Shown: positions 2,738 to 38,415 of the stretch, one piece after another
How the letters are laid out: every line of letters starts with the position of its first letter
How positions within the stretch are numbered: the first letter of the stretch is position 1
Assembly: GCA_963931605.1 (NCBI GenBank)
Contig: OZ007031.1
Span: 913,332 to 977,331 of the forward strand
DNA: 64,000 bases
Direction: 5' to 3'
Source: an uncultured Coriobacteriaceae bacterium
GTDB taxonomy: Bacteria; Actinomycetota; Coriobacteriia; Coriobacteriales; Coriobacteriaceae
Notes under the pieces: model-generated
Told to the model about the DNA's origin: nothing
Database searches by the model: none
The model's input: only the letters and a program-made list of their open reading frames with translations
Translations under genes and position numbers: made by a program

Positions 2738-2828
2738 GGGGGGGCTCCTTCGCAGCTCGGGTGCAATGTCGGGCCTATTGTACGGCAAGCGTGTGGAGGT
2801 CTGAAGGCGAGCGGAGGGAGGCGCGCGG

Positions 2829-3440
2829 CGGTTGGTCGCGCTTTCGACAGCCGTCGCAGGGGCCGCGCGCTTTTCTCGGCAGGTGCGGCCGCGGTTAGCC
2901 GCGTTTCCGACGTCGCCGCAGGGGCTGCATGTTCTTCTCGGCAGGTGCGAGGGGCTCGTCAGGCCGCGCCGCCGACGCCGCCACAAAACGCCTGCTTTTC
3001 TCAGCAGACGCAAGGCGCAGTACCCATTTTCGCAACGACCCCTGATGCGGCGCGTTTTTCTCGACAGGTGCGGATCGCGCTAACCGCGTTTCCGACGTCG
3101 CCGCAGGGGCCGCGCGTTTTTCCCGGCAGGTGCGAGGGGCTCGCGGCGTTTCCCCAGGAAACGCGTTAGGGCCTGCGCGCTTTTCTCGGCAGGCGCAAAA
3201 CGGGCGCGCCTTGCGTGGGCGCGCCACCTCCCCCGCTCCCGCATCTGTCGAGAAGAACCTGCCGAGAAGGCCCCGGGACGGCTCCGCGCCCTGCGACTGC
3301 CGAGAAGAACGCGCGGGCCGGCAGCCGCCGCCCCAACCCGCTCTGCACCTGCCGAGAGGAACCCGCAGAAACCGGCTCAAAACCCTCATCCTCGCTGCAT
3401 CTGTCGAGAAAAACGTACGGTGTCGCAACCGCGGCCAAAA
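2829..3440. repeat. mirror repeat block A: six ~62-bp units carrying TTTTCTCGGCAGGTGC, then four to five ~52-bp units carrying the reverse complement
   Basis: Forward motif starts at 2871, 2932, 2996, 3055, 3117, 3181. Reverse motif starts at 3241, (3259), 3293, 3345, 3397. Confidence 0.85.
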
Positions 3441-3615
3441 CGCGCGGGACGGCTCGTAGCTCACCGGGATCCAAGAGCGCAAGTGACGGTCGTTGACAAG
3501 CGTTATGATCCTTGCAATATCAAACGCATGTTCTTTTTATGGGGTGAATCGTGGTATGATGAGCTTGCGAGCGGGCGGTGCCCTCCGAGTCTAGCAGGTA
3601 GTGAGGAGGGATCCC

Positions 3616-3699
3616 GTGATCGTGAAGCTCACCGAGCTCGTTCGGGCGCTTGTTGCCCTTGTAGCTCTCATTATTATCCTGATGCTCTTGGTCAGGTAA
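3616..3699 (+). CDS. candidate small hydrophobic peptide, 27 aa (MIVKLTELVRALVALVALIIILMLLVR, GTG start)
   Basis: GAGGAGGG RBS lies 5 nt upstream of the GTG. An extended -10-like TGGTATGAT sits at 3552-3560. The patch is lower in G+C by eye. No homology evidence is available. Confidence 0.3.
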   Translation: MIVKLTELVRALVALVALIIILMLLVR

Positions 3700-3703
3700 A
3701 ATC

Positions 3704-5039
3704 GGGGTTATAGGACAAAAAGTGTGTATGGGCTAGTCCCAGTCCATACGGTATGGCTCGGAGCGATGCAGCTCTGACCACACTATGGCATCTCCCCACT
3801 GAGGAATGGTTCCTTGTAGCTTGTCCTGCTGATTGAGTCTCTCGTATATAGCTCTGATAGAGCCGTCCGTCGGCATGGCACGCAGGATCTCCGCTGCAGG
3901 CAAGGGGCTCGGGCTGTGCATACAGCACCACCAGAAGATCGCCTTGAGCCTGCGTTCGATAGAAAGTCCCCTATGGTCCCTGAGCATGGCTCTGAGCTGC
4001 GCGTTGGTGCCGCCTTCGATACGGTTGTTGGTGGCCGGGAGAGGGGCGAGGTGCTCTAGGCGGGGATCAAGGTAGGTGAACAGCGTCCCGGTGTTGATGA
4101 GCCGGGCGAGAGACCTCCGCGCCTTGACGAGGCGTTCATGCGCGAGGACGCACCTTCCCTCTTCCGTCTTCGTCCTCTCCGATAGGAAGTCGTCCCACCT
4201 CTCGGACCACGCAAGGAATGCCTCCGCCCACCCCTGCGCCTCTTTAAGGGTGGTGATGCCGAGCAGCGCTTTGGCAAGGCCGTACAGCTCTGCGCCCGCC
4301 TGCGTGCGGGGCTTCGAGGTGGTGTAGCGCTTGACCTGGGAGAATGCGTGGAAGATGCAGCGCTGGTGGTGCGCACGGGGCCATGTCTTCCCGAGCGCCT
4401 TCGGAAAGCCGTCGCCCCCGTCCGAGACGACCACCTCGGGGGCGGCTATGCGCTGCATCAAGGCCGACCAGCCGCGGCTGTTCTCCGCACGGCATAGGTG
4501 CCATCCCAGTACATGGCGCTCATCCGAGGCGATGAGCACGACGGCCTTTCTTCCGAGGTGTATGCCGTCAACGTAGATGACGCTTCGCGGCTCCTCTATC
4601 TTGGGCGGCATGGGCCATATATCCCAGAAGGGCGCGCACTTCCTTCTGAAGGTCCTGCCGGCCCCCGGCATATCTGATTGACGTTTGCGGGACAAAAGCC
4701 ACGCCAGGAAGGTTCTAAGGTCCTTGGCAGAGGTGTCGATCCTCCTCACCGAGCTCGAGCCGCAGCACCTACATCTGAAGCGAGTCCTGCCAGCTTTCGT
4801 TTTCCCGTTCTTAACCATATTGGAGCCGCAAACAGGGCAGCGGGGATTTCCCACGGCAACCTCGCAGATAGGCCAACTTCACTGTTAGAAACAACATGGT
4901 CTACCTGCGAGGATATGAAATTCTATACACACCTTTTGTCCAGGCAAAAGTTGGGACGATGCAACTCGAAGAGGCAATTTATAGGTATCTACCTGCAGTG
5001 ATACAGGAATCCCATACACACTTTTTGTCCTATAAGCCC
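3704..5039 (-). mobile_element. IS1249-like (IS256 superfamily) insertion sequence, ~1.34 kb
   Basis: Terminal inverted repeats GGGGTTATAGGACAAAAAGTGTGTATGGG (3704-3732) and CCCATACACACTTTTTGTCCTATAAGCCC (5011-5039) match at 28/29. They enclose a single transposase ORF. Confidence 0.85.
3733..4854 (-). CDS. IS1249-family transposase, 373 aa
   Basis: N-terminal zinc-finger CPVCGS...RFRCRCCG. The mutator/IS256-like core includes VIYVDGIHLGRK, VVSDGGDGF and HHQRCIFH. Confidence 0.88.
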   Translation of the reverse strand: MGNPRCPVCGSNMVKNGKTKAGRTRFRCRCCGSSSVRRIDTSAKDLRTFLAWLLSRKRQSDMPGAGRTFRRKCAPFWDIWPMPPKIEEPRSVIYVDGIHLGRKAVVLIASDERHVLGWHLCRAENSRGWSALMQRIAAPEVVVSDGGDGFPKALGKTWPRAHHQRCIFHAFSQVKRYTTSKPRTQAGAELYGLAKALLGITTLKEAQGWAEAFLAWSERWDDFLSERTKTEEGRCVLAHERLVKARRSLARLINTGTLFTYLDPRLEHLAPLPATNNRIEGGTNAQLRAMLRDHRGLSIERRLKAIFWWCCMHSPSPLPAAEILRAMPTDGSIRAIYERLNQQDKLQGTIPQWGDAIVWSELHRSEPYRMDWD

Positions 5040-5147: not shown

Positions 5148-5223
5148 TGGAGCCAGCAACGAGACTCGAACTCGTGACCCCCGCTTTACGAGAGCGGTGC
5201 TCTACCAACTGAGCTATGCTGGC
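5148..5223 (-). tRNA. tRNA-Thr (anticodon CGU), 76 nt with encoded CCA
   Basis: Cloverleaf folded by hand. Acceptor GCCAGCA/TGCTGGC, D arm GCTC/GAGC, anticodon stem CCGCT/AGCGG with loop CTCGTAA, T arm ACGAG/CTCGT with TTCGAGT loop. Confidence 0.9.
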
Positions 5224-5843: not shown

Positions 5844-6009
5844 GGCAACGCCTTTCGTGAAGCGGATGCGCGCGATGCGCCTTGTCGGTTCCATCATACC
5901 CGGATGCGCCGTGCGAACCAACCCGGCGCGGAGTTTGGGCGGTTCGGGTGGTGAGGGGCGGCTGTCCTGCGCTTGGATGCCAGCAGTGCGGGTAACCGCC
6001 GGGACCGGC

Positions 6010-6700
6010 GGCGCATCTGCCGAGAAAAATGCGCAGACTTTTTCAGCCGGCAATGCTTTCGCGACCAAAGGACTTTGCATCTAACGAGAAAAACGCGCGG
6101 GCTTCGTGAGTGGTGACGTTTTCGCAACCAAGCAGGGCATTCGATGTCGGAAGTGCGACCAACCGTCAGCGCCGGTAACGTACCTGCCGAGAAGAATGCG
6201 CGGGCCTCTCGGACGATGACGCTTTCGCGACCAAGCGGGACGATAGGTGTCGGAACCGCGGACAACCGAGTGAGACGAGTTCGGTTGGTCGCTGTTCCGA
6301 CATGGCCGATGTAGTTAGTCGCCCGAACCGCATCTAAATCCCGGAAATCCGGGAGTTGCGTGCGGCCCGGGCGACCAAGCGGAAGTTAGCGGTCGGATAT
6401 GCGACCAACCGGGAGCCTAGATGTCGCACTAACGGGCAAGTAGGAGCTTCGATGTCGCAACCGCGGGCAACTTATGCTTAGACGCCGGAAAGGTGACCAA
6501 CCGCCGGGGGCCACCGGTGCACCTGCCGAGAGAAATGCGCGAACTTCTCGGCCGATGACGCTTTCGCGACCAAGCGGGGCGATAGACGCCGCAAACGAGA
6601 GCAACTGCCAACGCCGGCGGCGTACCTGGCGAGAGTAATGTGCCCGCAGAGGGCGCGAGGCAGGAAGCTACCCCTCAGCCGCTGGCGCACCCGGCGAGAG
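6010..6700. repeat. repeat block B: GCAYCTGCCGAGAARAAYGCGC and GCGACCAAC/GGTTGGTCGC units around a palindromic core
   Basis: First motif starts at 6013, 6077, 6180, 6519, 6622, 6687. GCTTTCGCGACCAAGCGGG-type units lie at about 6054, 6117, 6219 and 6559. Dyad TCCCGGAAATCCGGGA is at 6339-6354. Confidence 0.8.
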
Positions 6701-9518: not shown

Positions 9519-10601
9519 CTACAGCGCGGCGATCACCGCGTCGGCGTAGGCCTGCGTGCCGGCTGCGCCCTCGGCAGAGCCCGTCAGCGCGCGCTTCACG
9601 TCGCCGGTGACGACCTCGCCGGCGGCAAGCGTGGCGCGCACCGCGCACCGGATGCGGTCGGCCGCCTCGCGCTCGCCCAGGTGGTCCAGCAGCATCGCCG
9701 CCGAGAGGAACTCGGCCGTGGGGTTGGCCAGGTCCTTGCCGGCGATATCGGGCGCCGAGCCGTGCGTGGGCTCGAAGATGGCGCAGTCCGCGCCGATGTT
9801 GGCGCCCGGCGCCATGCCGAGCCCGCCCACCAGGCCGGCCGTGAGGTCGCTCACGATGTCGCCGTAGAGGTTCGGCAGCACCAGCACGTCGAAGTCCTCG
9901 GGGTGCATCACCAGCCCCATGCAGGTGGCGTCCACGATCTTGTCCTCGAAGGCGATGTCGGGGTAGCCGGCGGCAACCTCGCGCGCCACGCGCAGAAACA
10001 GCCCGTCGGTGGCCTTCATGATGTTGGCCTTGTGCACCGCCGTGACCTTCTTGCGGCCCTGGCGCCGCGCGTACTCGAAGGCGTAGCGCACGATGCGCTC
10101 CGACCCTGCGCGCGAGATCGGCTTGACCGAGATCGCCGCGTCCTCGCGGATGGCGCCCGCGCCCTCGGCGGCCACCAGCTCGCGCAGCGCGTCGGCGCCG
10201 GGTGTGCCGACGTCGAACTCGATGCCGGCGTAGAGGTCCTCGGTGTTCTCGCGGATCACCGTGAGGTCCACGCCCTCGTAGCGCGAGCCGTCGCCGGGCA
10301 TCGACACGCAGGGGCGCACGCAGGCGTACAGGTCGAAGGCGCGGCGCAGCGCCACGTTCACGCTGCGGAAACCCGTCCCCACCGGCGTGGTGACCGGGCC
10401 CTTGATGGCCACGCCCACCTCGCGCACCGCCTCGAGCACGTGCTCGGGCAGCGGCGTGCCGTACTGCTCGATCACGCCGGCGCCGGCCTCGACCACGCGC
10501 CAGGAAACGCTGACGCCCGCCGCCTCGACCACGCGGCGCATCGCGCCGGTGATCTCGGGACCGATGCCGTCGCCGGGAATGAGCACCACCTCGTGCGTCA
10601 T
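9519..10601 (-). CDS. isocitrate/isopropylmalate dehydrogenase-family enzyme, probably NAD-dependent isocitrate dehydrogenase, 360 aa
   Basis: Motifs LIPGDGIGPE, IKGPVTTP, VIRENTEDLYAG, NLYGDIVSDL and HGSAPDIAG. The ATGA overlap with the upstream gene suggests translational coupling. Confidence 0.85.
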   Translation of the reverse strand: MTHEVVLIPGDGIGPEITGAMRRVVEAAGVSVSWRVVEAGAGVIEQYGTPLPEHVLEAVREVGVAIKGPVTTPVGTGFRSVNVALRRAFDLYACVRPCVSMPGDGSRYEGVDLTVIRENTEDLYAGIEFDVGTPGADALRELVAAEGAGAIREDAAISVKPISRAGSERIVRYAFEYARRQGRKKVTAVHKANIMKATDGLFLRVAREVAAGYPDIAFEDKIVDATCMGLVMHPEDFDVLVLPNLYGDIVSDLTAGLVGGLGMAPGANIGADCAIFEPTHGSAPDIAGKDLANPTAEFLSAAMLLDHLGEREAADRIRCAVRATLAAGEVVTGDVKRALTGSAEGAAGTQAYADAVIAAL

Positions 10602-11287
10602 TGTTCGTCGTCCTCCTCCCCGCCCGCCTTGCGCGAGCGCTTAGCCTCGGGGTTCTCGAGCGCGAACCGCTCTACCAATAGATGGTAAATCTCGGCGGAG
10701 CGCGCCTTCAAGTAGTTGCCCTTACCGTTTTCAGCATCGAAACGAAGCCGCGCGGCAAGCTGCTCGGCCACGCTCGCGTCGATGGCGCCGCCGGCGAAGG
10801 CGAGCAGGCAGCCCAGCATGTCGCGGTACTCCAAGTCGCCGTGGTAGCACTGGACGGCCTCGTCCACGACCGGCCACACCTGAAGCGACGCGTCCTTGTC
10901 GCACGCGCCCCACGCCGTCAGGAAGCGGAAGGCCGACAGGCGCAGCGTGGCCGAGTCCTCGTCGAACAGCGCCGCCTCGGCGCCGTCGAGCGCCCCGTCG
11001 AGCCCCTCGCGGCTCACGGGCACCAGAAGCGTCAGCGCGTCGAGCACCTCCCAGCGCGTCTGGGCCTCGGGGCGGTACAGCGCGTCCACCAGCTCGTCCA
11101 CGAACCCCGTCAGAAGCGAGGGCTCGCGCTCGGCCAGCAGGTACACCACGTGCGCCGCGAACTGGCGCTTCCGCCGGGTCTGCCCCTCGAGCTCCTCCAC
11201 CAAGCGCGCCAACGCCTCGCGGTCGTGCTCGACGCGCTCCAGCTCCTGCTCGTCGCGCTCGTCCATCTGCTCCTCCGTACGTGCCAT
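10598..11287 (-). CDS. hypothetical protein (helical-repeat-like), 229 aa
   Basis: GGAGG RBS before ATG 11287. The 4-nt overlap with the downstream dehydrogenase gene is consistent with coding. No recognisable catalytic motif. Confidence 0.6.
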   Translation of the reverse strand: MARTEEQMDERDEQELERVEHDREALARLVEELEGQTRRKRQFAAHVVYLLAEREPSLLTGFVDELVDALYRPEAQTRWEVLDALTLLVPVSREGLDGALDGAEAALFDEDSATLRLSAFRFLTAWGACDKDASLQVWPVVDEAVQCYHGDLEYRDMLGCLLAFAGGAIDASVAEQLAARLRFDAENGKGNYLKARSAEIYHLLVERFALENPEAKRSRKAGGEEDDEQ

Positions 11288-11422: not shown

Positions 11423-11887
11423 TTATCCCTTGCGCGAGCGACGGCCCGCAGCGCGCTTGCCGCCCGCGGGGTCCGCCGTCTTAGGCGCGTCGCCGCCCAC
11501 CGAGATGAGGTCGGGCTCGTCTGCGCCCTCGGCGCGGCGGCGCCGGCGCGCAGCCCCCGCCCCGCTCGCCGCGGCGCGCTGGTGCGCCTTGTTGATGTTG
11601 AAGAACCGGTCCACGAACTTCCACGGGCCCACGGACTCGCCGAAGGCCATCTTGAGCCCCGTGAGCCCGCCGGCGATGATGCCCACCGGCACCGCCTCGA
11701 GCAGCACCAGGCCGGCCGCGCCGATCAGCGCCCCCAGCACGATGCCGCCTGCGAGAAGCGCCGCGTTCATCCCCCAGAACTCGCCTGCGGTGACGGCGCG
11801 CTCGCCCAGCTCGGTGCCCAGGCGGAACCCGATGAGGATGCCCAGCACGCCGAGCACCGCGAAGCTCACGACAAACGCTATCTCCAC
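11423..11887 (-). CDS. small membrane protein with basic C-terminal tail, 154 aa
   Basis: Three to four hydrophobic helices (FVVSFAVLGVLGILIGF, ALLAGGIVLGALIGAAGLVLL, VGIIAGGL). GTG start lies 3 nt after the upstream stop, with GAGGAG RBS. Confidence 0.6.
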   Translation of the reverse strand: MEIAFVVSFAVLGVLGILIGFRLGTELGERAVTAGEFWGMNAALLAGGIVLGALIGAAGLVLLEAVPVGIIAGGLTGLKMAFGESVGPWKFVDRFFNINKAHQRAAASGAGAARRRRRAEGADEPDLISVGGDAPKTADPAGGKRAAGRRSRKG

Positions 11888-11890
11888 GCG

Positions 11891-12973
11891 CTACTCCTCG
11901 CTGGCGTCGTGATGGTGGCAGCACGAGCCGTCCTCGTGGGCGTGGTCGTGTCCGCAGGTGCACTCGTGGTCGTCCTCGTGATGGTGGCCGCAGCCGCACT
12001 CCTCGCCATGGCCGTGGTCATGGCCGCAGCCGCACTCGTCGTCCTCGTGGGCGGCCGTGTACAGCGACCAGTCAAGCCCGGCCGCCACCGCGTCGGCCTC
12101 CTCCTGGTACAGCAGCGTGATGCCCTGGGTGCCCATCTCGGAGCCGCCGATGGCGTCGAGCATGTCGTAGAGGGTGAAGGCGGTCTCGGCGCCGGGCAGC
12201 GCGATCTCCTTGTCCTCGGCGGTCTGCAGCGCCAGGCCCAGGTCCTTCAGGAAGTGCTTGACCATGAAGCCGGGCTTGTAGTCGCCGTCGAGCGCCAGCG
12301 GGGCGAGCGAGCGCATGGCCCCGGAGTCGCCGGTGCCCGAGCAGATGAGGTCGCGCACCTGAGCCTGGTCAAGGCCGCACTGCTCGGCAAAGGCCAGCGC
12401 GTCGGCCATGCCCACCATGGCGCTGGCGAGCGCCACCTGGTTGGCGAGCTTGGCCTCCTGGCCCTTGCCCGCGCCGCCGAAGCAGCAGATCTTGGACGAG
12501 AAGGTCTCGAGGATGGGGCGCACGGGCTCGATGTCGCGCTCGGTGGCGCCCACGATGAGGGTGAGCGTGCCGGCCTCGGCGCCGGACTGGCCGCCGGTCA
12601 CCGGGCAGTCGAAGGCCACCTTGCCCATGACCTGCGCGGACTCGGCGATGTCGCGCGCAAGCTGCGGCGAGGAGGTCGTGAGGTCGATGAGGTAGGCGCC
12701 CTTCTTGGCGCAGCGCAGAAGCCCCTCGGTGGTGAGGTAGGTCTCCTCCACGTCCTCGGGGTAGCCCAGCATGGTGAAGACCACGTCGGCGCCGGCGGCC
12801 GCCTCGGCGGCGGAGTCGGCCCAACGCGCGCCGCGCTCGACGAGCGGCTCGGCCTTGGCCTTGGTGCGGTTATAGACGGTCAGCTCGTAGCCGGCGTCCA
12901 TGATGTGGCCGGCAATGGGCGCGCCCATGATGCCGGTGCCGATGAAAGCGACCTGCTGCTTGGTGTGTGCCAT
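11891..12973 (-). CDS. NAD(P)-dependent beta-hydroxyacid dehydrogenase family (HIBADH/6PGDH-NAD-binding) with His/Cys-rich C-terminal tail, 360 aa
   Basis: Rossmann motif VAFIGTGIMGAPIA and the SSPQLAR and VTGGQSGAEAGTL blocks. About 50-aa tail EDDECGCGHDHGHGEECGCGHHHEDDHECTCGHDHAHEDGSCCHHHD. AAGGAG RBS. Confidence 0.85.
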   Translation of the reverse strand: MAHTKQQVAFIGTGIMGAPIAGHIMDAGYELTVYNRTKAKAEPLVERGARWADSAAEAAAGADVVFTMLGYPEDVEETYLTTEGLLRCAKKGAYLIDLTTSSPQLARDIAESAQVMGKVAFDCPVTGGQSGAEAGTLTLIVGATERDIEPVRPILETFSSKICCFGGAGKGQEAKLANQVALASAMVGMADALAFAEQCGLDQAQVRDLICSGTGDSGAMRSLAPLALDGDYKPGFMVKHFLKDLGLALQTAEDKEIALPGAETAFTLYDMLDAIGGSEMGTQGITLLYQEEADAVAAGLDWSLYTAAHEDDECGCGHDHGHGEECGCGHHHEDDHECTCGHDHAHEDGSCCHHHDASEE

Positions 12974-16106: not shown

Positions 16107-16544
16107 GGAGCCTCCCCCTCGTTGCAAGCTATATGGTTCCCCCCAGCTGACCTGGTCTTTGCCCCCACACTTGCGCACCGGGGCGTTTGCTCGGGCCGCC
16201 GCGGCGGCCTTCACGACTAACCCGCTCGCCCGCGGGGCAACGTGCCCCAGAGGTGGTATACGGACGGTGCGACTTACTCCTAGGACGCGCCATGATCGCG
16301 CGGCGCGCACGCCGTCGCTTACGTGGACCCTTTCGGCCGCGTCTGCCTTGGGATTGAACAGGCCTCGCGCAAGGGAGCGCGCCAACGGGCACCGTACCCG
16401 CGTGCGTGCGTCTTGCACCTATTCGCAACCACAGACCTGGGAGGAACGTGCGGCAGTATAACAAGAAGAAGCCTAACCGTAAACCTGAACTTGAATGTTT
16501 TGGACAAACGAACAGAGAGGCCGCGTCAGCCGACATGCCGACGC

Positions 16545-17165
16545 GGTGCAAGCGGGCGAAAAGGGGTGTTCACGCAGGGGCGCGCGGGCGAGAAGGGTGT
16601 TCATGCAGGGGGCGCGCGGGCGAGAAGGGTGCTCGTATGAGAGCGCGCGGGCGAAAAGAGCGTTCATACGAAAAGCGTGGGCGAGAAGAACGAGGCGCAT
16701 GGGCGAAAGGAGCGTTCATACGAGCGCTGTGGGCGACAATTGCGTTCATACGACAAGCGTGGGCGAAAAGGACGTTCGTACGGACGCGGTTTTGTCGGCT
16801 AAGCCTTCGCACGGTATTTTTATACCGCAATGCGACCAGCTAGCGGGGAGGCGCATGCCGTAGTGCCGCCCCTACGGGCAACTCCAGTCGTATGATTGCT
16901 TTTCTCGCCCATGCCTGTCGTATGAGTGTTGTTTTCGCCCATACCCGTCGTATGAATGCCTTTTTCGCCCACGCGGTTCGTATGGACGTTGTTTTCGCCC
17001 GGCAGGTCCGTACGAATGGTGATTTCGCCCACGAAGCTCGTATAAGTGCTGTTTTCGCCTGCTTGGTTCGTATGAGCCGTTATTGTCGCCCGCGTGGTTC
17101 GCATGGATGATGATATCGCCCACGGAACTTGCCACGAGGCTCGCACGCACGCTCTTTTCGCCTGG
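16545..17165. repeat. mirror repeat block C: 8 + 8 units of ~30 bp (GGGCGAAAA-N6-TCATACG-N8 and its reverse complement)
   Basis: Left units start at 16554, 16586, 16618, 16649, 16679, 16701, 16731, 16761. Right units start at 16889, 16919, 16949, 16979, 17009, 17039, 17069, 17100. Confidence 0.9.
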
Positions 17166-17398
17166 AAGCGTCCGCTCCCCCGCCCCGCGCGCGCAGCAAA
17201 TGCTGCCGCACGCTCTCTACCTGGAGCTGTCGTATAAACGCAACAGGTGCCCCCGCGGAGAAACGCTCGGTCGCCTCCAGCCTGCCCGTACGGGTGAGAA
17301 CGACGGCACCCCATAGGCGTTTTGCGCATATCGGCAGCGCGCGCACCGGGCCGAACGCACCGCAGCTATACTGAACGCATCCTCCTCCCGCGTCCCGC

Positions 17399-18343: not shown

Positions 18344-19909
18344 CTACTCGGGTAGCACGATCGTGAACACCGTGTGCTCGGCGTCGGACGCGCACGAGAT
18401 GGTGCCGCCGTGCGCAGTGACGATCTCCTTGGCGATGGCCAGGCCCAGCCCCGCGCCGCCGCGGTTGGTGGCGCGCGCCGCGTCCAGACGGTAGAACTTC
18501 TCGAAGATCACGTCCAGCTTGGCCTTAGGGATGGGATCGCCTTGGTTCTCGAAGCGGATCACGCAGCTGTGGTCCTCGGCGCGCTTCTCGGCCTCAACGC
18601 GGATGGCGGTGCCCTCGTAGCTGTAGGCGATGGCGTTTTTCATCACGTTGTTGAACACGCGGGCCATCTTGTCGCCGTCGACCAGCACGGTGAGCCCCAG
18701 CGGCACGGACAGCTCCACGGTCTTGCGCTGCTCGGCGAGGGTGGGATAGAACTCTTCGGCCACCTGGGCGAGCATGAGGTTCAGGTCGACGTAACCGCGC
18801 GTGAGCACGATGTCGTGGAAGTCGAAGCGCGTGATGTCGAAGAACTCCTCGATAAGCGCGTCCAAGCGGTGCGCTTTGTCCAGCGCGATGCCCGTGAAGC
18901 GCACGCGCTGCTCGGCCGGCAGGTCGGGCGCCTCGTTGAGCAGCGAGAGGTAGCCCACCACGCTTGCCAGCGGCGTCTTGAGGTCGTGCGCGAGGTAGGT
19001 CACCAAGTCGTCCTTGCGGCGCGACTCGTCGCGCAGCGCCTGCTCGCTCATGCGCTCGCGCGCGCGGACGCGGTTGAGGGCGGCCTCGACCTCCAAGAAG
19101 TCGCTGTCCAGGTCGCCCCAGTCGTTCGGGTTCTCGATGAGGCGACTCACCAGGTGCTCGGCAATGGCGGAGTCGGCCTCGGCCTGGCCGGCGGCAACGC
19201 CGCGGCGGTACATGTCGCGCGCGAGGAAGAACAACCCGCACACCGCCAGGCACACCACGAAGCCCAAGAACACGAACACCCAGCGAATGTCAAGGTAGAC
19301 GAGGGGAAACGCCGAGTAGATCATGCCGCCGGCGAGCATGGTGAGCCCCCAGGCGGTCCCGCCGATGATGACGGCGTGGCGCACGTCGATGAAGCGGTCG
19401 ATCAGCACGTAACCGCCGAACAGCACCGCCACCAGCAACAGGAAGCTCTCGCTCAGAAGCGTGAACGTCAAAACGAGCAGCACGACAAAGGCGGCCAGGC
19501 GGCTGTTGAACAGCGTGCGCAGCCAGTCCGGAGCGGCGGCACGGCCAGGGCCGGCAGCGCGGTGAAGTGGCGCGGCGGCGGCATCGGGCGCATAGCCGTC
19601 GGACGACGCAGGCGAGAAGGGTGCGCCCGCGGCTCCGGCGCCCGCCGCATGTGAGGACGCGCCTGTGGCAGCGTTTGCCGAGCGAGCTGACGGGGCGGCG
19701 GAAGATGCCGGGGAGCCGGCCGTCGCGCGGCCGCCGTAGCTGGTGCTCTTATCCCCCGCCGCATACGCCCGCACCTCGATGGTGCGCGCAGGATCGGCAG
19801 GGTCGGGCGAGCCGGGCGCGTTCGGCCGACCGGTCAGCGGGTTCACCGGCGTGCGCAGCGGATCCGTCTGCTGCACGGCATCCCATACATGCGGCTTTCT
19901 GATCTTCAC
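18344..19909 (-). CDS. sensor histidine kinase, VanS-like, with ~130-aa Ala/Pro/Gly-rich N-terminal extension, 521 aa
   Basis: H-box YLAHDLKTPLASVVGYLSLL, N-box ARVFNNVMKNAIAYS, G-boxes RATNRGGAGLGLAIAKEI. As I recall it, the block order closely resembles enterococcal VanS. GTG start with AAGGAG 6 nt upstream. Confidence 0.88.
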   Translation of the reverse strand: MKIRKPHVWDAVQQTDPLRTPVNPLTGRPNAPGSPDPADPARTIEVRAYAAGDKSTSYGGRATAGSPASSAAPSARSANAATGASSHAAGAGAAGAPFSPASSDGYAPDAAAAPLHRAAGPGRAAAPDWLRTLFNSRLAAFVVLLVLTFTLLSESFLLLVAVLFGGYVLIDRFIDVRHAVIIGGTAWGLTMLAGGMIYSAFPLVYLDIRWVFVFLGFVVCLAVCGLFFLARDMYRRGVAAGQAEADSAIAEHLVSRLIENPNDWGDLDSDFLEVEAALNRVRARERMSEQALRDESRRKDDLVTYLAHDLKTPLASVVGYLSLLNEAPDLPAEQRVRFTGIALDKAHRLDALIEEFFDITRFDFHDIVLTRGYVDLNLMLAQVAEEFYPTLAEQRKTVELSVPLGLTVLVDGDKMARVFNNVMKNAIAYSYEGTAIRVEAEKRAEDHSCVIRFENQGDPIPKAKLDVIFEKFYRLDAARATNRGGAGLGLAIAKEIVTAHGGTISCASDAEHTVFTIVLPE

Positions 19910-20009
19910 GGGCTGCTCCTTCGTCCTTGATTGCGTACCAGTATACGAAGGCGTGCGGACACGATTCCCGAAAGAGTTACTTAAGTTGGCACGGCGGCTT
20001 GACGGCGCC

Positions 20010-20430
20010 GGCGCGCGCCTGCCGGTTGCCCGCGGAAACTACGACCAGGGCAGGCGGCTCCTTCGGTTGCCCGCGGAAAAGTCGCGCAAGCTTTTGGTCG
20101 GTTGCGAGAACATCGATCAGGCCCTCGGCTGGTCGCGAAAATGACGGCTAGAGCCGGTGGTCCCCCTTCGGCTGGTCGCGGAAGCGTCGTGCAGAACTTT
20201 GGTTGGTCGCCGTTTCGACATTGCCGGAACAGTTAGTCGCTCCCACGACAGCTAACTCCCAGAAATCCGGGAGTTGCATGCAGCCCGAACGACCAAACGG
20301 GATTTACCTGCGATTATCGCGATCAACCGGAGGCCTCGATGCCGTTAGCGCAACCAACTGGAGCTTGCGCGCCACCATCGCGGCCAACCGCAGCGCGAAC
20401 ACCGTTAGCGCGGCAAGCGCGAGCTGAATC
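20010..20430. repeat. mirror repeat block D between response-regulator and kinase genes: GGTTGGTCGC-type units, dyad core, then GCGACCAAC-type units
   Basis: Left units lie at about 20022, 20063, 20094, 20127, 20169, 20200, 20230. The dyad CTCCCAGAAATCCGGGAG is at 20255-20272. Right units lie at about 20285, 20315, 20344, 20367. Confidence 0.8.
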
Positions 20431-20436
20431 TCCGCC

Positions 20437-21135
20437 CTACCCCTCGATGGTGTAGCCGACGCCCCAGATGTTCTTGATGAAGCGCGGGTTCTGAGCGTCG
20501 TCACCCAGCTTCTCGCGCAGGTGGCGGATGTGCACCATCACCGTGTTGTTGGAGCTCGGCAGAAACTCCTCTTTCCACACCGCGCGGAACAGGTCCTCCA
20601 CCGCCACCACCTTGCCGCGGTTGTCGGCCAGGTACAGCAGGATCGCGTACTCCAGCGGCGTGAGGCGCACGGGCTTCTCGTCCACGGTGACCTGGCGCGA
20701 GTCGCGGTTGATGGTCAGCCCGTCGATGGAGATGACCGCCGCGTCCTCGCCGTTGGCCCGGTTGCCGTAGCTGGTGTAGCGCCTGAGCTGCGCTTTTACG
20801 CGCGCCACAAGCTCGAGCGGGCGGAAGGGCTTCACCACGTAGTCGTCTGCGCCAAGTGACAGTCCCTCGATCTTGTCGGTCTGGGAGTCGCGCGCGGTGA
20901 GCATGATGACAGGATAGGTGTGGTCGGCGCGGATGGAGCGCAGGAGCTCGAAGCCATCAATGTCGGGCAGCATCACGTCGAGAACCGCCAGGTCGAACTC
21001 TTGGGCGAGAATCTCGCGCAGAGCGTCGGCGCCGGTGTAGGCAAGCGTCACGGCATAGCCCTCGTTTTTGAGGTAGATGCCCACCAGGTCGGTAATGGCC
21101 TTCTCGTCGTCGACCACCAGGATACGCGTTTCCAT
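20437..21135 (-). CDS. OmpR/PhoB-type response regulator, VanR-like, 232 aa
   Basis: Receiver motifs LVVDDE, LAVLDVMLPDIDG and VVKPF. Winged-helix C-terminus LTPLEYAILLYL, VMVHIRHLREKL, GVGYTIE. Confidence 0.92.
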   Translation of the reverse strand: METRILVVDDEKAITDLVGIYLKNEGYAVTLAYTGADALREILAQEFDLAVLDVMLPDIDGFELLRSIRADHTYPVIMLTARDSQTDKIEGLSLGADDYVVKPFRPLELVARVKAQLRRYTSYGNRANGEDAAVISIDGLTINRDSRQVTVDEKPVRLTPLEYAILLYLADNRGKVVAVEDLFRAVWKEEFLPSSNNTVMVHIRHLREKLGDDAQNPRFIKNIWGVGYTIEG

Positions 21136-21312
21136 GCCGTTCCCTTCCAGACTTCCCGCACCTCACGCGCCATGCTCGGCGCCCCGGGCCGGCGTGCGCG
21201 CCTGCGGCAGGCGCGGCCGATCCACGCGCCGCGCATGGCGCGCAGCGACGTTGAGCACACCGCCCCTCATTATGACCGAACGGCGCGCAGCGTGCGCGCG
21301 AGGGGCGCAGCC

Positions 21313-22809
21313 TTAAGAACTTTTAAGTGACGGGCGCCACGGCAAGTCGGCGGCGCGCCAGCCTGCCCAGGCGAGAAGCACCCCGACCGCAAGCAACCCC
21401 GCAAGCGACAGCGGAACGACCCCCACGAGGTACCCCGAGAGGTTGAGCGCGAGGTGCAGTCCGATGCACGGGCCCAGGCGCCGGTAGCGGCGGTACACCA
21501 CGCCCAGCACCAACCCGGAGGCGAACGCATAGGCGCCCTGCACGAAGTTGCCGTGAAGCACGCCGAACATCAGCGCCTGCAGCACGTTGGCAGCCCAGAA
21601 CCTGCCGGTGGCCTTCTCGGCAAACGTGAGGCCGAGCCCGCGGCAGAACAGCTCCTCGGAGATCGGCGCGCCGATAACCGAGGTCAGAATGGGGATCAGG
21701 GCAACGTCGGAGAGGTCGCCGGCGTTTACCGAGGTGGAATAGCTTTTCATGAGGTCGGGCACGAGCGGCAGCAGGGCCGTGAGCGCCACTGCGAGCACGA
21801 ACTGGAAACCGACGCCCAAGGCGAGGATGCCCGCTGCGTTGCGGCAGCTCACCTGCGCGCGCCGCGCAGGGTCGCGGTGGCGGCGCTCGATGTAGCGCCA
21901 CCAGGGCAGGGCGATCAGGATCGAGATGATCTGACCGGCGGCCAGCGCGCAGGACATGCTGCCGGCCAGGTACGACGCGAGCTCGCGCGCACCGGCGGCC
22001 AGCGCCAAACCAGCGCCCGCAGCGGCGGCAAACGCGCCGGCGAGCTGCGCGCCCACGAGGATGAACGGCAGCGCGAGGAAAAGCAGGAACCAGCCGATGC
22101 GCTTGCCCCAGGTGAGACGCGCCATAAACCGAGCGGCGCGCGGCGCTGCCGAGGATGCCCGCGGAGGCTGGGGAGCAGAGGCGGACCCCGGAGCGTCGCT
22201 TGCGAGGCGGGAGTCCGGCTCTGCCGACGCGCGGTCGACCGGCTCGTTCGGCGCTTCGGAAGCTGGCTCCTCAGTCAGAGAGGCGGCGACCGTGACGGGG
22301 CTTTGAGCATCCGGTGCGGGAGCATCGGCAAGCGCAAGCACGCCCGGGGCGTCAGCACCGACGCCGGAGCCGAGACTCACGATGCGGGAAGCGTCGCCTA
22401 AGCCAACGGCGCTTTCAAAACCGGCCTGCTCTACGCCGGCCCCGGCGGCGATGCTTGCGAGCGAGGGCCCCAGCACCGCTACGGAAGCAGGAGCCGCAGC
22501 TTCTTCTGAGGCGGTCGGCAGCGCTTCGGCATCATCGCAGACAGATGCCTCGGCTTCGTCACAGGCGGGCGCATCAACGGCCGCACCAGTCTCACCGGAA
22601 CCACATGGGTCGGCTTCACCGCGATCAGCCTCGTCGGCCTCACAACGGCCGTGCGCGTCAACGCGGTCGCGCTCATCCGCGCAGCCGCGCTGCTCGGCCC
22701 CGTCGGCAGCCAACTCGGGCTCCGCCTCGTGAGCGGCGGCGTCTCTCGCGTTGCGAGGTTCATCTTGGGAAGCCTCAAGGGCGTCCTTCTTGCTTACGTC
22801 GTCGCCCAT
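21313..22809 (-). CDS. CPBP-family intramembrane glutamic endopeptidase (CAAX protease/Abi-like) with ~230-aa acidic low-complexity N-terminus, 498 aa
   Basis: Motifs EELFCRG, FGVLH and HLALN occur in a polytopic membrane C-terminal half. GGAGG RBS before ATG 22809. Confidence 0.8.
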   Translation of the reverse strand: MGDDVSKKDALEASQDEPRNARDAAAHEAEPELAADGAEQRGCADERDRVDAHGRCEADEADRGEADPCGSGETGAAVDAPACDEAEASVCDDAEALPTASEEAAAPASVAVLGPSLASIAAGAGVEQAGFESAVGLGDASRIVSLGSGVGADAPGVLALADAPAPDAQSPVTVAASLTEEPASEAPNEPVDRASAEPDSRLASDAPGSASAPQPPRASSAAPRAARFMARLTWGKRIGWFLLFLALPFILVGAQLAGAFAAAAGAGLALAAGARELASYLAGSMSCALAAGQIISILIALPWWRYIERRHRDPARRAQVSCRNAAGILALGVGFQFVLAVALTALLPLVPDLMKSYSTSVNAGDLSDVALIPILTSVIGAPISEELFCRGLGLTFAEKATGRFWAANVLQALMFGVLHGNFVQGAYAFASGLVLGVVYRRYRRLGPCIGLHLALNLSGYLVGVVPLSLAGLLAVGVLLAWAGWRAADLPWRPSLKSS

Positions 22810-27139: not shown

Positions 27140-27265
27140 CGCGAGCCCGCAGATGGAGAGGCGATCCGACTTGTTCCGCAGCGCACCGCGGAAGTTACGG
27201 TTACTGGTATAGCCGGGGACTTGCACCCCGATTCCCCTGAGCAGCCGCCGGCTCCCCGGCCGCGC
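27140..27265 (-). promoter_or_regulatory. probable cobalamin (B12) riboswitch aptamer in the leader of the DUF4430-ecfT-ecfAA'S operon
   Basis: The minus strand reads AGGGGAATCGGGGTGCAAGTCCCCGGCTATACCAGTAACCGTAA...CCGCGGTGCGCTGCGG..AAGTCGGATCGCCTCTCC. This parallels the GGGAA-GGTG-AA-TCC / CCNGNAACNGTAA core and B12-box of RF00174 as I remember them. No covariance model was run. Confidence 0.6.
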
Positions 27266-37716: not shown

Positions 37717-37964
37717 GATCCCTCTTTCTGCCTGGGAGCGTCTGCTCCGCCCTTAGCACCTGCAGTGTTAAGTATACGTGAATTGATGAAAACCAACTGG
37801 TTACTACCAGTTGAATTCGCAAACGGTCGAAATCTCCATGTGAGGGGTCTAAACGGCAACATGTTGGCGGAAAATGTACAGAAATACGCGGCGAACGGCT
37901 GAGGCACGGCGTGTCGCCGGTGGCAAGGGTGCCTGCGGTAACGGTGCGCGATTTCCACGGGTAG

Positions 37965-38415
37965 CGGCGCGCGTTTTTCTCGGCAGGTGCTACGGTGCGC
38001 ATATTTCTCTCGACAGGTACGGCAGTGCGCACGCTTCTCTCGACAGATGCAGTCTACCTGAGCCTTTTGGGCCCAACCCTGCGCACTCTTCTCGGCAGAT
38101 GCAAAACCGACATGCGGCGCACTCCCCCAACGCTTGCATCTGTCGAGAAAAACCGGGCGAAATCGTGCAGCAATCCCTGCCGACGTCGCACCTGCCGAGA
38201 AGAACATGCCAACGCACCGTCAGTGGCCCCAGCCCCCTCACACCTGTCGAGAAAAACCAGCGAAACAGCGCGGCATACGTTGTCGACGTTGCGTCTGCCG
38301 AGACAAACTAACCGACATATCGCCAGCGGCTTTAACCTTCCTGCACCTGCCGAGAAGAACGCTCAAGGGGCCCCGCACTCGCACAAGCGGACGCATCTGC
38401 CGGGAAGATCGCGCA
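37965..38415. repeat. mirror repeat block E: four TTYTCTCGRCAGRTGC units, then six reverse-complement units at a 52-bp phase
   Basis: Forward motif starts at 37974, 38004, 38035, 38087. Reverse motif starts at 38136, 38188, 38240, 38291, 38343, 38393. Confidence 0.85.

Follow-up and report, generated by a model that had tools for sequence, protein, structure and literature searches.

Why are a VanR-like response regulator gene and its VanS-like histidine kinase gene separated by 527 bp filled with short repeats? The question is raised by a 64-kb window of DNA (the whole stretch analyzed, 64,000 nucleotides) from an uncultured Coriobacteriaceae bacterium, where the minus strand encodes both genes, transcribed from right to left in the order regulator, kinase. 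An earlier note on this DNA had proposed that a mirror repeat array in the spacer uncouples kinase from regulator expression as an internal promoter, terminator or insulator, with an insertion hot spot as the fallback idea. Our analysis argues for the fallback. The array, designated D, is rather likely (probability about 0.65) to be a passenger copy of a dispersed, non-coding family of interspersed repeats that lies in a permissive gap and did not itself produce the split between the two genes. The locus is organized as follows:

20437-21135, minus strand: response regulator gene, VanR-like, OmpR family (232 aa; Pfam Response_reg and Trans_reg_C)
18344-19909, minus strand: histidine kinase gene, VanS-like (521 aa, GTG start; Pfam HisKA and HATPase_c)
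19910-20436: spacer from regulator stop to kinase start (527 bp)
20013-20436, both arms: mirror-array element D, extra DNA relative to the array-free relative L001
20023-20254, plus strand: left arm of D, seven forward D-type units (GGYTGSYCGC core, then GAAA or TTTCGAC), 27-43 nt from start to start
20254-20275: central dyad AACTCCCAGAAATCCGGGAGTT, a 9-bp stem with one mismatch and a 4-nt loop; extended stem AACTCCC.G/C.GGGAGTT
20285-20425, minus strand: right arm of D, four to five reverse-complement D-type units, abutting the regulator stop codon

The coordinates of the open reading frames (ORFs) reproduced the 527-bp separation given in the earlier note and bore out that the kinase has a GTG start (19907-19909) and an AAGGAG ribosome binding site (RBS; 19916-19921) of its own. 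The mirror repeat array was likewise confirmed, by a map of its units and by comparison with shuffled sequences. Forward units, of which about seven had been expected, start on the plus strand at 20023, 20064, 20099, 20126, 20169, 20201 and 20232. The units at 20023 and 20064 carry the exact 16-mer CGGTTGCCCGCGGAAA, those at 20126 and 20169 read CGGCTGGTCGCG, and those at 20201 and 20232 read GGTTGGTCGC and GTTAGTCGC, respectively. The D-type pattern can be written as GGTTGGTCGC followed by ..TTCCGACA or GAAAGCG, with GGTTGGTCGCNGTTTCGACAT as core oligonucleotide. Units are 60-75% alike and consist of cores of 10-16 nt joined by linkers of 15-30 nt. On the other side of the centre, where about four reverse units had been described, we found four clear cores (20289-20298, 20319-20328, 20350-20359, and 20380-20389) and a degenerate fifth unit at about 20410-20423. 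Unit orientation switches only once, at the centre. The inner dyad CTCCCAGAAATCCGGGAG is present there as described, at 20256-20273, one base to the right of the 20255-20272 first given for it. The two arms are mutually reverse-complementary at the level of units, with inverted pairs showing 70-92% complementarity, and a 105-bp internal duplication (20060-20105 versus 20165-20210, 74%) indicates that the left arm grew in place. On the gene strand, the spacer contains ORFs of 18-43 aa and none longer, and none of these minus-strand ORFs bridges the regulator stop and the kinase start in the manner of the coupling by mycobacterial interspersed repetitive units (MIRUs).

Within 20013-20436, pairs of 9-mers with at most one mismatch numbered 55 in direct orientation, compared with 17.8 ± 7.3 (maximum 44) in 200 dinucleotide shuffles, and 43 in inverted orientation, compared with 19.8 ± 6.6 (maximum 41). 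The motif GGYTGSYCGCG occurs seven times in 64 kb, where 2.4 matches are expected and none of 100 shuffles reached seven, and five of the seven matches fall inside these 420 bp. Tandem Repeats Finder called no tandem array at D since the units are too degenerate. Several simple explanations were rejected on these grounds and related ones: chance low complexity by the excess over dinucleotide shuffles; a decayed coding sequence by the repeat structure and the paralogous copy described below; a CRISPR array by the flip of orientation at the centre, the lengths of cores and linkers, and profiled neighbours that are not cas genes (Pfam); and an iteron or replication origin by the lack of rep genes among the profiled neighbours.

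D is one of at least five mirror arrays (A to E) that together make up about 4% of the window. All follow one layout, in which short, degenerate units form a block, a centre comes next, and the same units return in reverse complement:

2828-3410: array A, D-type and X-type units alternating with a 62-nt period, forward to 3196; X reversed from 3241
5988-6600: array B, D-type and X-type units; centre homologous to that of D
16552-17240: array C, Y units (GGGCGAAAAG..GTTCATACGA) every 30-32 nt, forward at first and reversed from 16888
37960-38410: array E, X units forward to 38102 and reversed from 38136; centre homologous to that of A
20198-20344 (147 nt): core of D in common with 6280-6426 in array B, same orientation (blastn: 148 columns, 77%, E 1.7e-27; also aligned by MAFFT)

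The copy of the D core in array B lies about 14 kb away from D, and this paralogy further supports the hot-spot idea. The alignment takes in the central hairpin, whose counterpart in B is TCCCGGAAATCCGGGA near 6337-6358. Arrays A and E have another centre in common (94 nt, 71%), and the family therefore comprises at least two subfamilies. D-type units were found in arrays A, B, and D. The X unit, GCGCGyTTTTCTCGGCAGGTGC with the core oligonucleotide GCGCGTTTTTCTCGGCAGGTGC, occurs 26 times in the window, always inside A, B or E; about 23 of its positions are conserved, some of them outside the search pattern, and its flanks are random. Arrays A and C sit in divergent-promoter regions, and array C is missing at the orthologous sites of two relatives (L001 and L080). 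In other Collinsella-like genomes, this architecture recurs with different unit sequences, and in two of these loci mirror modules stand directly after the kinase stop codon. L007 has a single module at 10575-11205, composed of eight forward units of about 31 nt (GGATCCCGGGTTCGGCTTCTGTCCATCGGC), a hairpin centre (CTGGGGGTGAAAAACGGCCCCAG), and eight reverse units, and L008 has three tandem copies of a whole module (11590-12650), which shows that entire modules can duplicate.

The search for arrays and units covered 72 kb of this genome, i.e., the window and 8.4 kb to its left (L091), where no further arrays were found. Neither the centre nor the X motifs occur in 72 loci of other species, all matches being confined to contigs of the same species. 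In the metagenomes of the Joint Genome Institute (JGI), the B/D centre motif had no matches and the X unit had eight single matches on contigs of 38-67% G+C without arrays, which we took as chance; the species seems to be absent from that collection. Literature searches on repeats or miniature inverted-repeat transposable elements (MITEs) of Collinsella and Coriobacteriia returned no description of mirror arrays, and the family appears to be undescribed. Because no target-site duplication (TSD), terminal motif or autonomous partner was found for the arrays, we infer their mobility from distribution alone. By inspection, no direct repeats flank D at 20013/20436, where the empty site of L001 is too diverged to give boundaries at base level.

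The only transposase or insertion sequence (IS) within reach of the arrays in the region examined is an IS256/Mutator-family element at 3704-5039, between array A and a tRNA gene (5151-5223, minus strand). It has 29-bp terminal inverted repeats (3704-3732 and 5011-5039, 96.6%) and a transposase ORF at 3733-4854 (minus strand). We rejected it as the parent of the arrays since none of them resembles it at E<=0.01 and its ends are unrelated. Next to it, a 27-codon ORF (3616-3699, plus strand) with a strong GAGGAGG RBS encodes the very hydrophobic peptide MIVKLTELVRALVALVALIIILMLLVR and resembles a type I toxin; a promoter-like TTGACA...TATGAT stretch lies ahead of it at 3494-3510. Directly downstream of array C, a raiA RNA motif was detected at 16138-16445 (minus strand, 127 bits), and array C begins just upstream of the conserved raiA promoter.

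Comparison with relatives shows how variable the regulator-kinase junction is. In 31 of 42 orthologous pairs that have the regulator upstream on the same strand, the spacer measures at most 100 bp, which agrees with the statement in the earlier note that such genes normally lie adjacent. When the comparison with orthologous pairs suggested there was carried out, the insert was absent from L001 and most other orthologues. L001 (regulator 92% and kinase 75% identical, the kinase alignable from residue 1) has an 89-bp spacer without an array; this spacer can be aligned only to about 19910-20012 of the window, so that 20013-20436 represents extra DNA. Two further relatives carry mirror arrays in the gap, with spacers of 752 bp (L080, kinase 80% identical) and 1119 bp (L081, kinase 74%). 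Their units are GCGTTTTGCCTGTTGGCG and GTTCTTCTCGGCTTGCGC and the centre is AT-rich; the two arrays show 82% identity to each other and no blastn similarity to D. In Enorma massiliensis (L014), the spacer measures 691 bp and combines a long hairpin with direct repeats of its own; the gap contains a small lipoprotein-like ORF in L016 and L020, 3.3 kb in L015, and a hairpin in L017, while only 13 nt separate the regulator stop from the kinase promoter box in L001. This range of contents fits the hot-spot idea well. Judged from these sequences, the gap qualifies as a permissive or hot site, and the two-component system does not include the array as a conserved component. Within the species, the spacer is 527 bp long in all six contigs that span it, a seventh (L079) stopping about 13 bp short, and each of the seven differs by zero to two single-nucleotide polymorphisms (SNPs). 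With its length fixed and so few SNPs, array D is not hypervariable.

Other arrangements were seen among the orthologous loci. About eight Collinsella loci (L005, L007, L008, L010, L012, L013, L052, and L053) have the kinase without a cognate regulator within 10 kb upstream, and in L021 the regulator and kinase genes point in opposite directions. Public gene calls without a Pfam match overlie the arrays of L080 (6415-7170, minus strand) and L081 (3269-3823 and 4033-4200, plus strand), encoding 251, 184, and 55 aa, respectively; these are almost certainly not real genes but artefacts of the arrays.

If the array does not explain the split, what does? Upstream of each gene we found a conserved block with the features of a promoter and a regulator binding site:

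19940-19985, minus strand: putative kinase promoter block; regulator box CTTAAGTAACTCTTTCG (19969-19985) and -10 element TATACT (19940-19945), 23 nt apart
21269-21327, minus strand: putative regulator promoter block; direct repeats CTTAAAAGTTCTTAAGG (21311-21327) with an 11-bp period and -10 element CATAAT (21269-21274)

The kinase block lies outside the array, 27 nt downstream of the edge of D, and its box has the form CTTAAG-N5-CTTTCG. Every orthologue whose spacer exceeds about 60 bp shows the same arrangement, TTAAG-N5-(T)CTT, 23-24 nt, TATACT, and about 35 nt to the kinase start codon. In an alignment of 14 lineages with and without arrays, TTAA(G)..CTT..TATACT forms the only invariant columns; mean column identity is 51% with the conserved block included, and the other columns are largely unconserved. 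Of 54 loci, 12 have the pattern ahead of the kinase gene; each of these either has a long spacer or lacks a co-oriented regulator upstream. Overall, the pattern occurs only 28 times in 2.8 Mb. The block is also kept in L007 and L008, which have no cognate regulator within 10 kb upstream. Upstream of the regulator, a CTTAA-N6-CTTAA-type box followed after about 30-45 nt by CATAATGG (GATAAT in L022) was found in 16 of 17 inspected loci, the exception being L017, which has neither the box nor its -10 element. The box has the form CTTAA-N6-CTTAAGG in the window and is resembled by the kinase box. OmpR/PhoB-type activators act through direct repeats that recur every 11 bp and are centred near -45. 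Together with these repeats, the conserved blocks suggest that both genes are autoregulated from separate promoters, the blocks acting as putative promoters and regulator binding sites. One regulator box at two separate promoters seems to be a feature throughout a clade of Coriobacteriaceae. Since the putative kinase promoter is conserved with or without arrays, the regulator/kinase split seems independent of the array. The idea that the array uncouples expression as promoter or terminator is not supported in the form proposed, the kinase block being outside the array and invariant in 14 lineages that include array-free ones.

These observations can be combined into a simple scenario. D would occupy the only free DNA at this site, namely the short interval that the regulator stop leaves before the kinase promoter. 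Both genes were probably separate, likely autoregulated transcription units before the array, in which case the array did not create the split. Transcripts reading through from the regulator would fold D into an imperfect hairpin of about 400 nt, which should hinder read-through or yield a nuclease-resistant or RNase III-sensitive 3' end. The kinase would then rely more heavily on its own promoter, with a rise in the regulator-to-kinase ratio. By analogy with BOX elements and with repetitive extragenic palindromic (REP) sequences between cistrons, D may impede or process read-through as a secondary effect, and a secondary insulating effect of the hairpin is plausible from the predicted fold.

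Several points weigh against D being a passenger. The B/D subfamily could be compared in two copies only, which are 77% identical, and no TSD, terminal motif or partner was found. Long repeat-rich or hairpin-containing inserts in the same gap of three to four lineages could reflect selection for a structured insulator. Neutral DNA is saturated between these species, so that independent insertions look the same as an ancient array that has diverged, been replaced, or been lost in L001. Finally, the promoter and regulator-box assignments are based on conservation and on knowledge of the OmpR/PhoB family.

An alternative that takes up the second of these points is that the array is a selected insulator or terminator, i.e., a hairpin maintained after the regulator stop to block read-through and so to set the regulator-to-kinase ratio. 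The predicted fold is indeed strong. Gene-strand RNA from 19996-20436 forms one long imperfect hairpin (ΔG -217.5 kcal/mol, z -6.2), and none of 100 shuffles was as stable. The array starts within a few bases of the regulator stop codon, the spacer length is fixed within the species, and the same gap has a mirror array or repeats with a hairpin in L080, L081, and L014 and a hairpin in L017. However, the array is absent from L001 and most orthologues, and the same architecture occurs at the divergent-promoter arrays A and C, where there is no upstream gene to terminate. A stem-plus-T-tract terminator is found nowhere in the spacer; a scan of 19500-21500 on both strands gave no intrinsic terminator, i.e., GC-rich stem and T-run (0 sites, shuffle mean 1.3). 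In permutation tests, compensatory changes were not in excess between the orthologous L080/L081 arrays (P 0.57-0.88), and pair-breaking changes were at most weakly depleted (P about 0.015); the D/B paralogues showed neither a compensatory excess (P 0.31-0.86) nor a pair-breaking deficit. Because no compensatory excess was detected, the D hairpin seems to be a by-product of the mirror layout and not a selected RNA. Of the seven D units taken singly, six are predicted to be no more stable than mononucleotide shuffles, and the exception is marginal (the 23-nt unit u7, -5.3 versus -2.2 ± 1.6 kcal/mol). Rfam 15 gave no array match at the gathering threshold, none at E<=1 across the whole window, and only chance-level matches (E 6-9) in 19850-20500. 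We consider a selected insulator unlikely.

The units might instead be binding sites of a DNA-binding protein (transposase-end, iteron-like or nucleoid), acting at the level of DNA by assembly, bending, roadblock or boundary formation. Asymmetric conserved cores with random linkers, including the X unit with its roughly 23 conserved nucleotides, are consistent with this, as is the 30-31-nt period of the better-preserved arrays, which corresponds to about three helical turns. A forward block, a centre and a reverse block are also the layout of transposon ends with several subterminal sites, and the core variants are genome-specific, CAGGTGC in the window and CTTGCGC in L080/L081. On the other hand, there is no candidate protein, since the sole nearby transposase, that of the IS256-family element, has unrelated ends; the units of D are irregularly spaced (27-43 nt), neither a terminal motif nor a TSD could be defined, and core conservation is partly an ascertainment effect because the units were found by their core. 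Protein binding as the explanation is likewise improbable. A more elaborate form, which we judge to be less probable still, makes mirror arrays an undescribed class of Coriobacteriaceae interspersed repeats whose phased, asymmetric cores, about 30-31 nt apart, bind a dedicated protein, either a transposase-like mobilizer or a chromatin/boundary factor, with the core co-evolving with that protein in each genome. The arrays would then be programmable boundaries between transcription units, and D would part two autoregulated promoters.

It is very unlikely that the array supplies the kinase promoter, as MIRU-containing senX3-regX3 DNA with its promoter activity (PMC4213456) and a GATAAT hexamer on the minus strand at about 20311-20316 might suggest, since a consensus scan of 19500-21500 gave no sigma-70-type promoter, the array sequence is not conserved between species, and the conserved block lies downstream of the array and also in array-free relatives.

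The best NCBIfam model for the regulator is VanR_ACDEGLN (344 bits, below the cut-off of 350) and that for the kinase is HK_VanS (316.7 bits, below the cut-off of 400), so that "VanR/VanS-like" is fair as a best-hit family assignment only, both scores being under the curated cut-offs. No van resistance genes adjoin the pair; a CAAX/Rce1-like protease and an ABC/ECF transporter are encoded next to it. At its N terminus, the kinase is extended by about 130 residues (residues 1-130; 19520-19909, minus strand), which are rich in Ala, Pro, Ser, and Gly and precede the first membrane segment. The extension is highly variable, and many orthologues match from residue 90-160 onward only. Among 185,579 species genomes, the top kinase match, with 75% identity, was an uncultured Coriobacteriaceae metagenome-assembled genome (MAG), and all good matches came from Collinsella, Enorma or other Coriobacteriaceae. 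The host is a high-G+C, Collinsella-like member of the Coriobacteriaceae near Collinsella and Enorma, and ENA contains an identical contig of 2.39 Mb. Elsewhere in the window, an AdoCbl-II riboswitch aptamer was detected at 27159-27238 (minus strand), its score of 37.3 bits being just above the Rfam gathering threshold of 36.5.

For the locus itself, these results mean that a VanRS-like system in a gut Coriobacteriaceae clade appears to be organized as two genes with a promoter each and, probably, a common regulator box. Split promoters of this kind allow tuning of the regulator-to-kinase ratio, and the array provides a natural with/without experiment on read-through. For genome annotation, mirror arrays attract spurious ORF calls (251 aa in L080, for example), add to intergenic distances, and can mislead predictors of operons, CRISPR arrays, and non-coding RNAs in Collinsella-like MAGs. 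If protein binding or RNA processing were found for the arrays, they would be a new type among bacterial interspersed repeat families. The single locus is ordinary once explained, but the mirror-array family seems undescribed.

How does this locus compare with known systems? Its flanking genes score best against VanR and VanS models, and the direct repeats of the regulator promoter suit an OmpR-family autoregulator. The vanRS genes of the VanA cluster are co-transcribed. The present pair differs from VanR-VanS in that both proteins score below the cut-offs, no van resistance genes are adjacent, and the kinase has its own putative promoter.

Among repeats, REP sequences between operon genes, e.g., malE-malF, give differential expression by stabilizing the upstream mRNA. 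Like them and the bacterial interspersed mosaic elements (BIMEs), D is a cluster of short intergenic repeats in both orientations. REP/BIME units are individually palindromic, alternating, and linked to REP-associated tyrosine transposases (RAYTs), whereas the units of D are not hairpins and switch orientation once; no RAYT transposase was seen in the region examined. With MITEs, such as Correia of Neisseria or Chunjie, a Geobacter element that inserts within operons, D has in common a length of about 420 bp, a non-coding sequence with inverted arms, dispersed copies, presence that varies among relatives, and tolerance between co-oriented genes. Unlike MITEs, it has no defined terminal inverted repeat, TSD or parent IS, its arms are arrays of unequal numbers of units (7 versus 4-5), and its paralogues, which are 77% identical, are old.

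BOX elements of Streptococcus pneumoniae (boxA, boxB in n copies, boxC) have been judged to be parasitic and are expected to affect co-transcribed genes via secondary structure (PMC3049150). They resemble D in being modular, non-coding, intergenic, species-restricted, and structured (by prediction), with internal units that vary in number. They come from another phylum, bear no sequence relation to D, and have distinct A and C ends with B units in a single orientation, whereas D repeats one unit on both arms, oppositely oriented about a specific centre.

The nearest precedent, finally, is that of the MIRUs in the senX3-regX3 intergenic region of M. tuberculosis, where the repeat-bearing DNA shows promoter activity and the downstream gene is independently expressed (PMC4213456). 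Both cases involve lineage-restricted, short interspersed repeats between two-component genes that do not form a simple bicistronic operon. The gene order is kinase then regulator in senX3-regX3 and regulator then kinase here. MIRUs are near-identical direct tandem repeats, given as 53-77 bp or as about 46-101 bp long, whose number varies among strains, whereas D consists of degenerate units every 27-43 nt, forward and reverse around a dyad, in an array that is fixed in contigs of the same species. MIRUs have promoter activity in the repeat region and small ORFs that overlap the flanking stop and start codons, whereas the putative promoter at D lies outside the array and the spacer has no bridging ORF. 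With these likenesses and differences, D is a variety of the bacterial interspersed, structured intergenic repeats, and its closest analogues are MIRUs, BOX elements, BIMEs, and MITEs.

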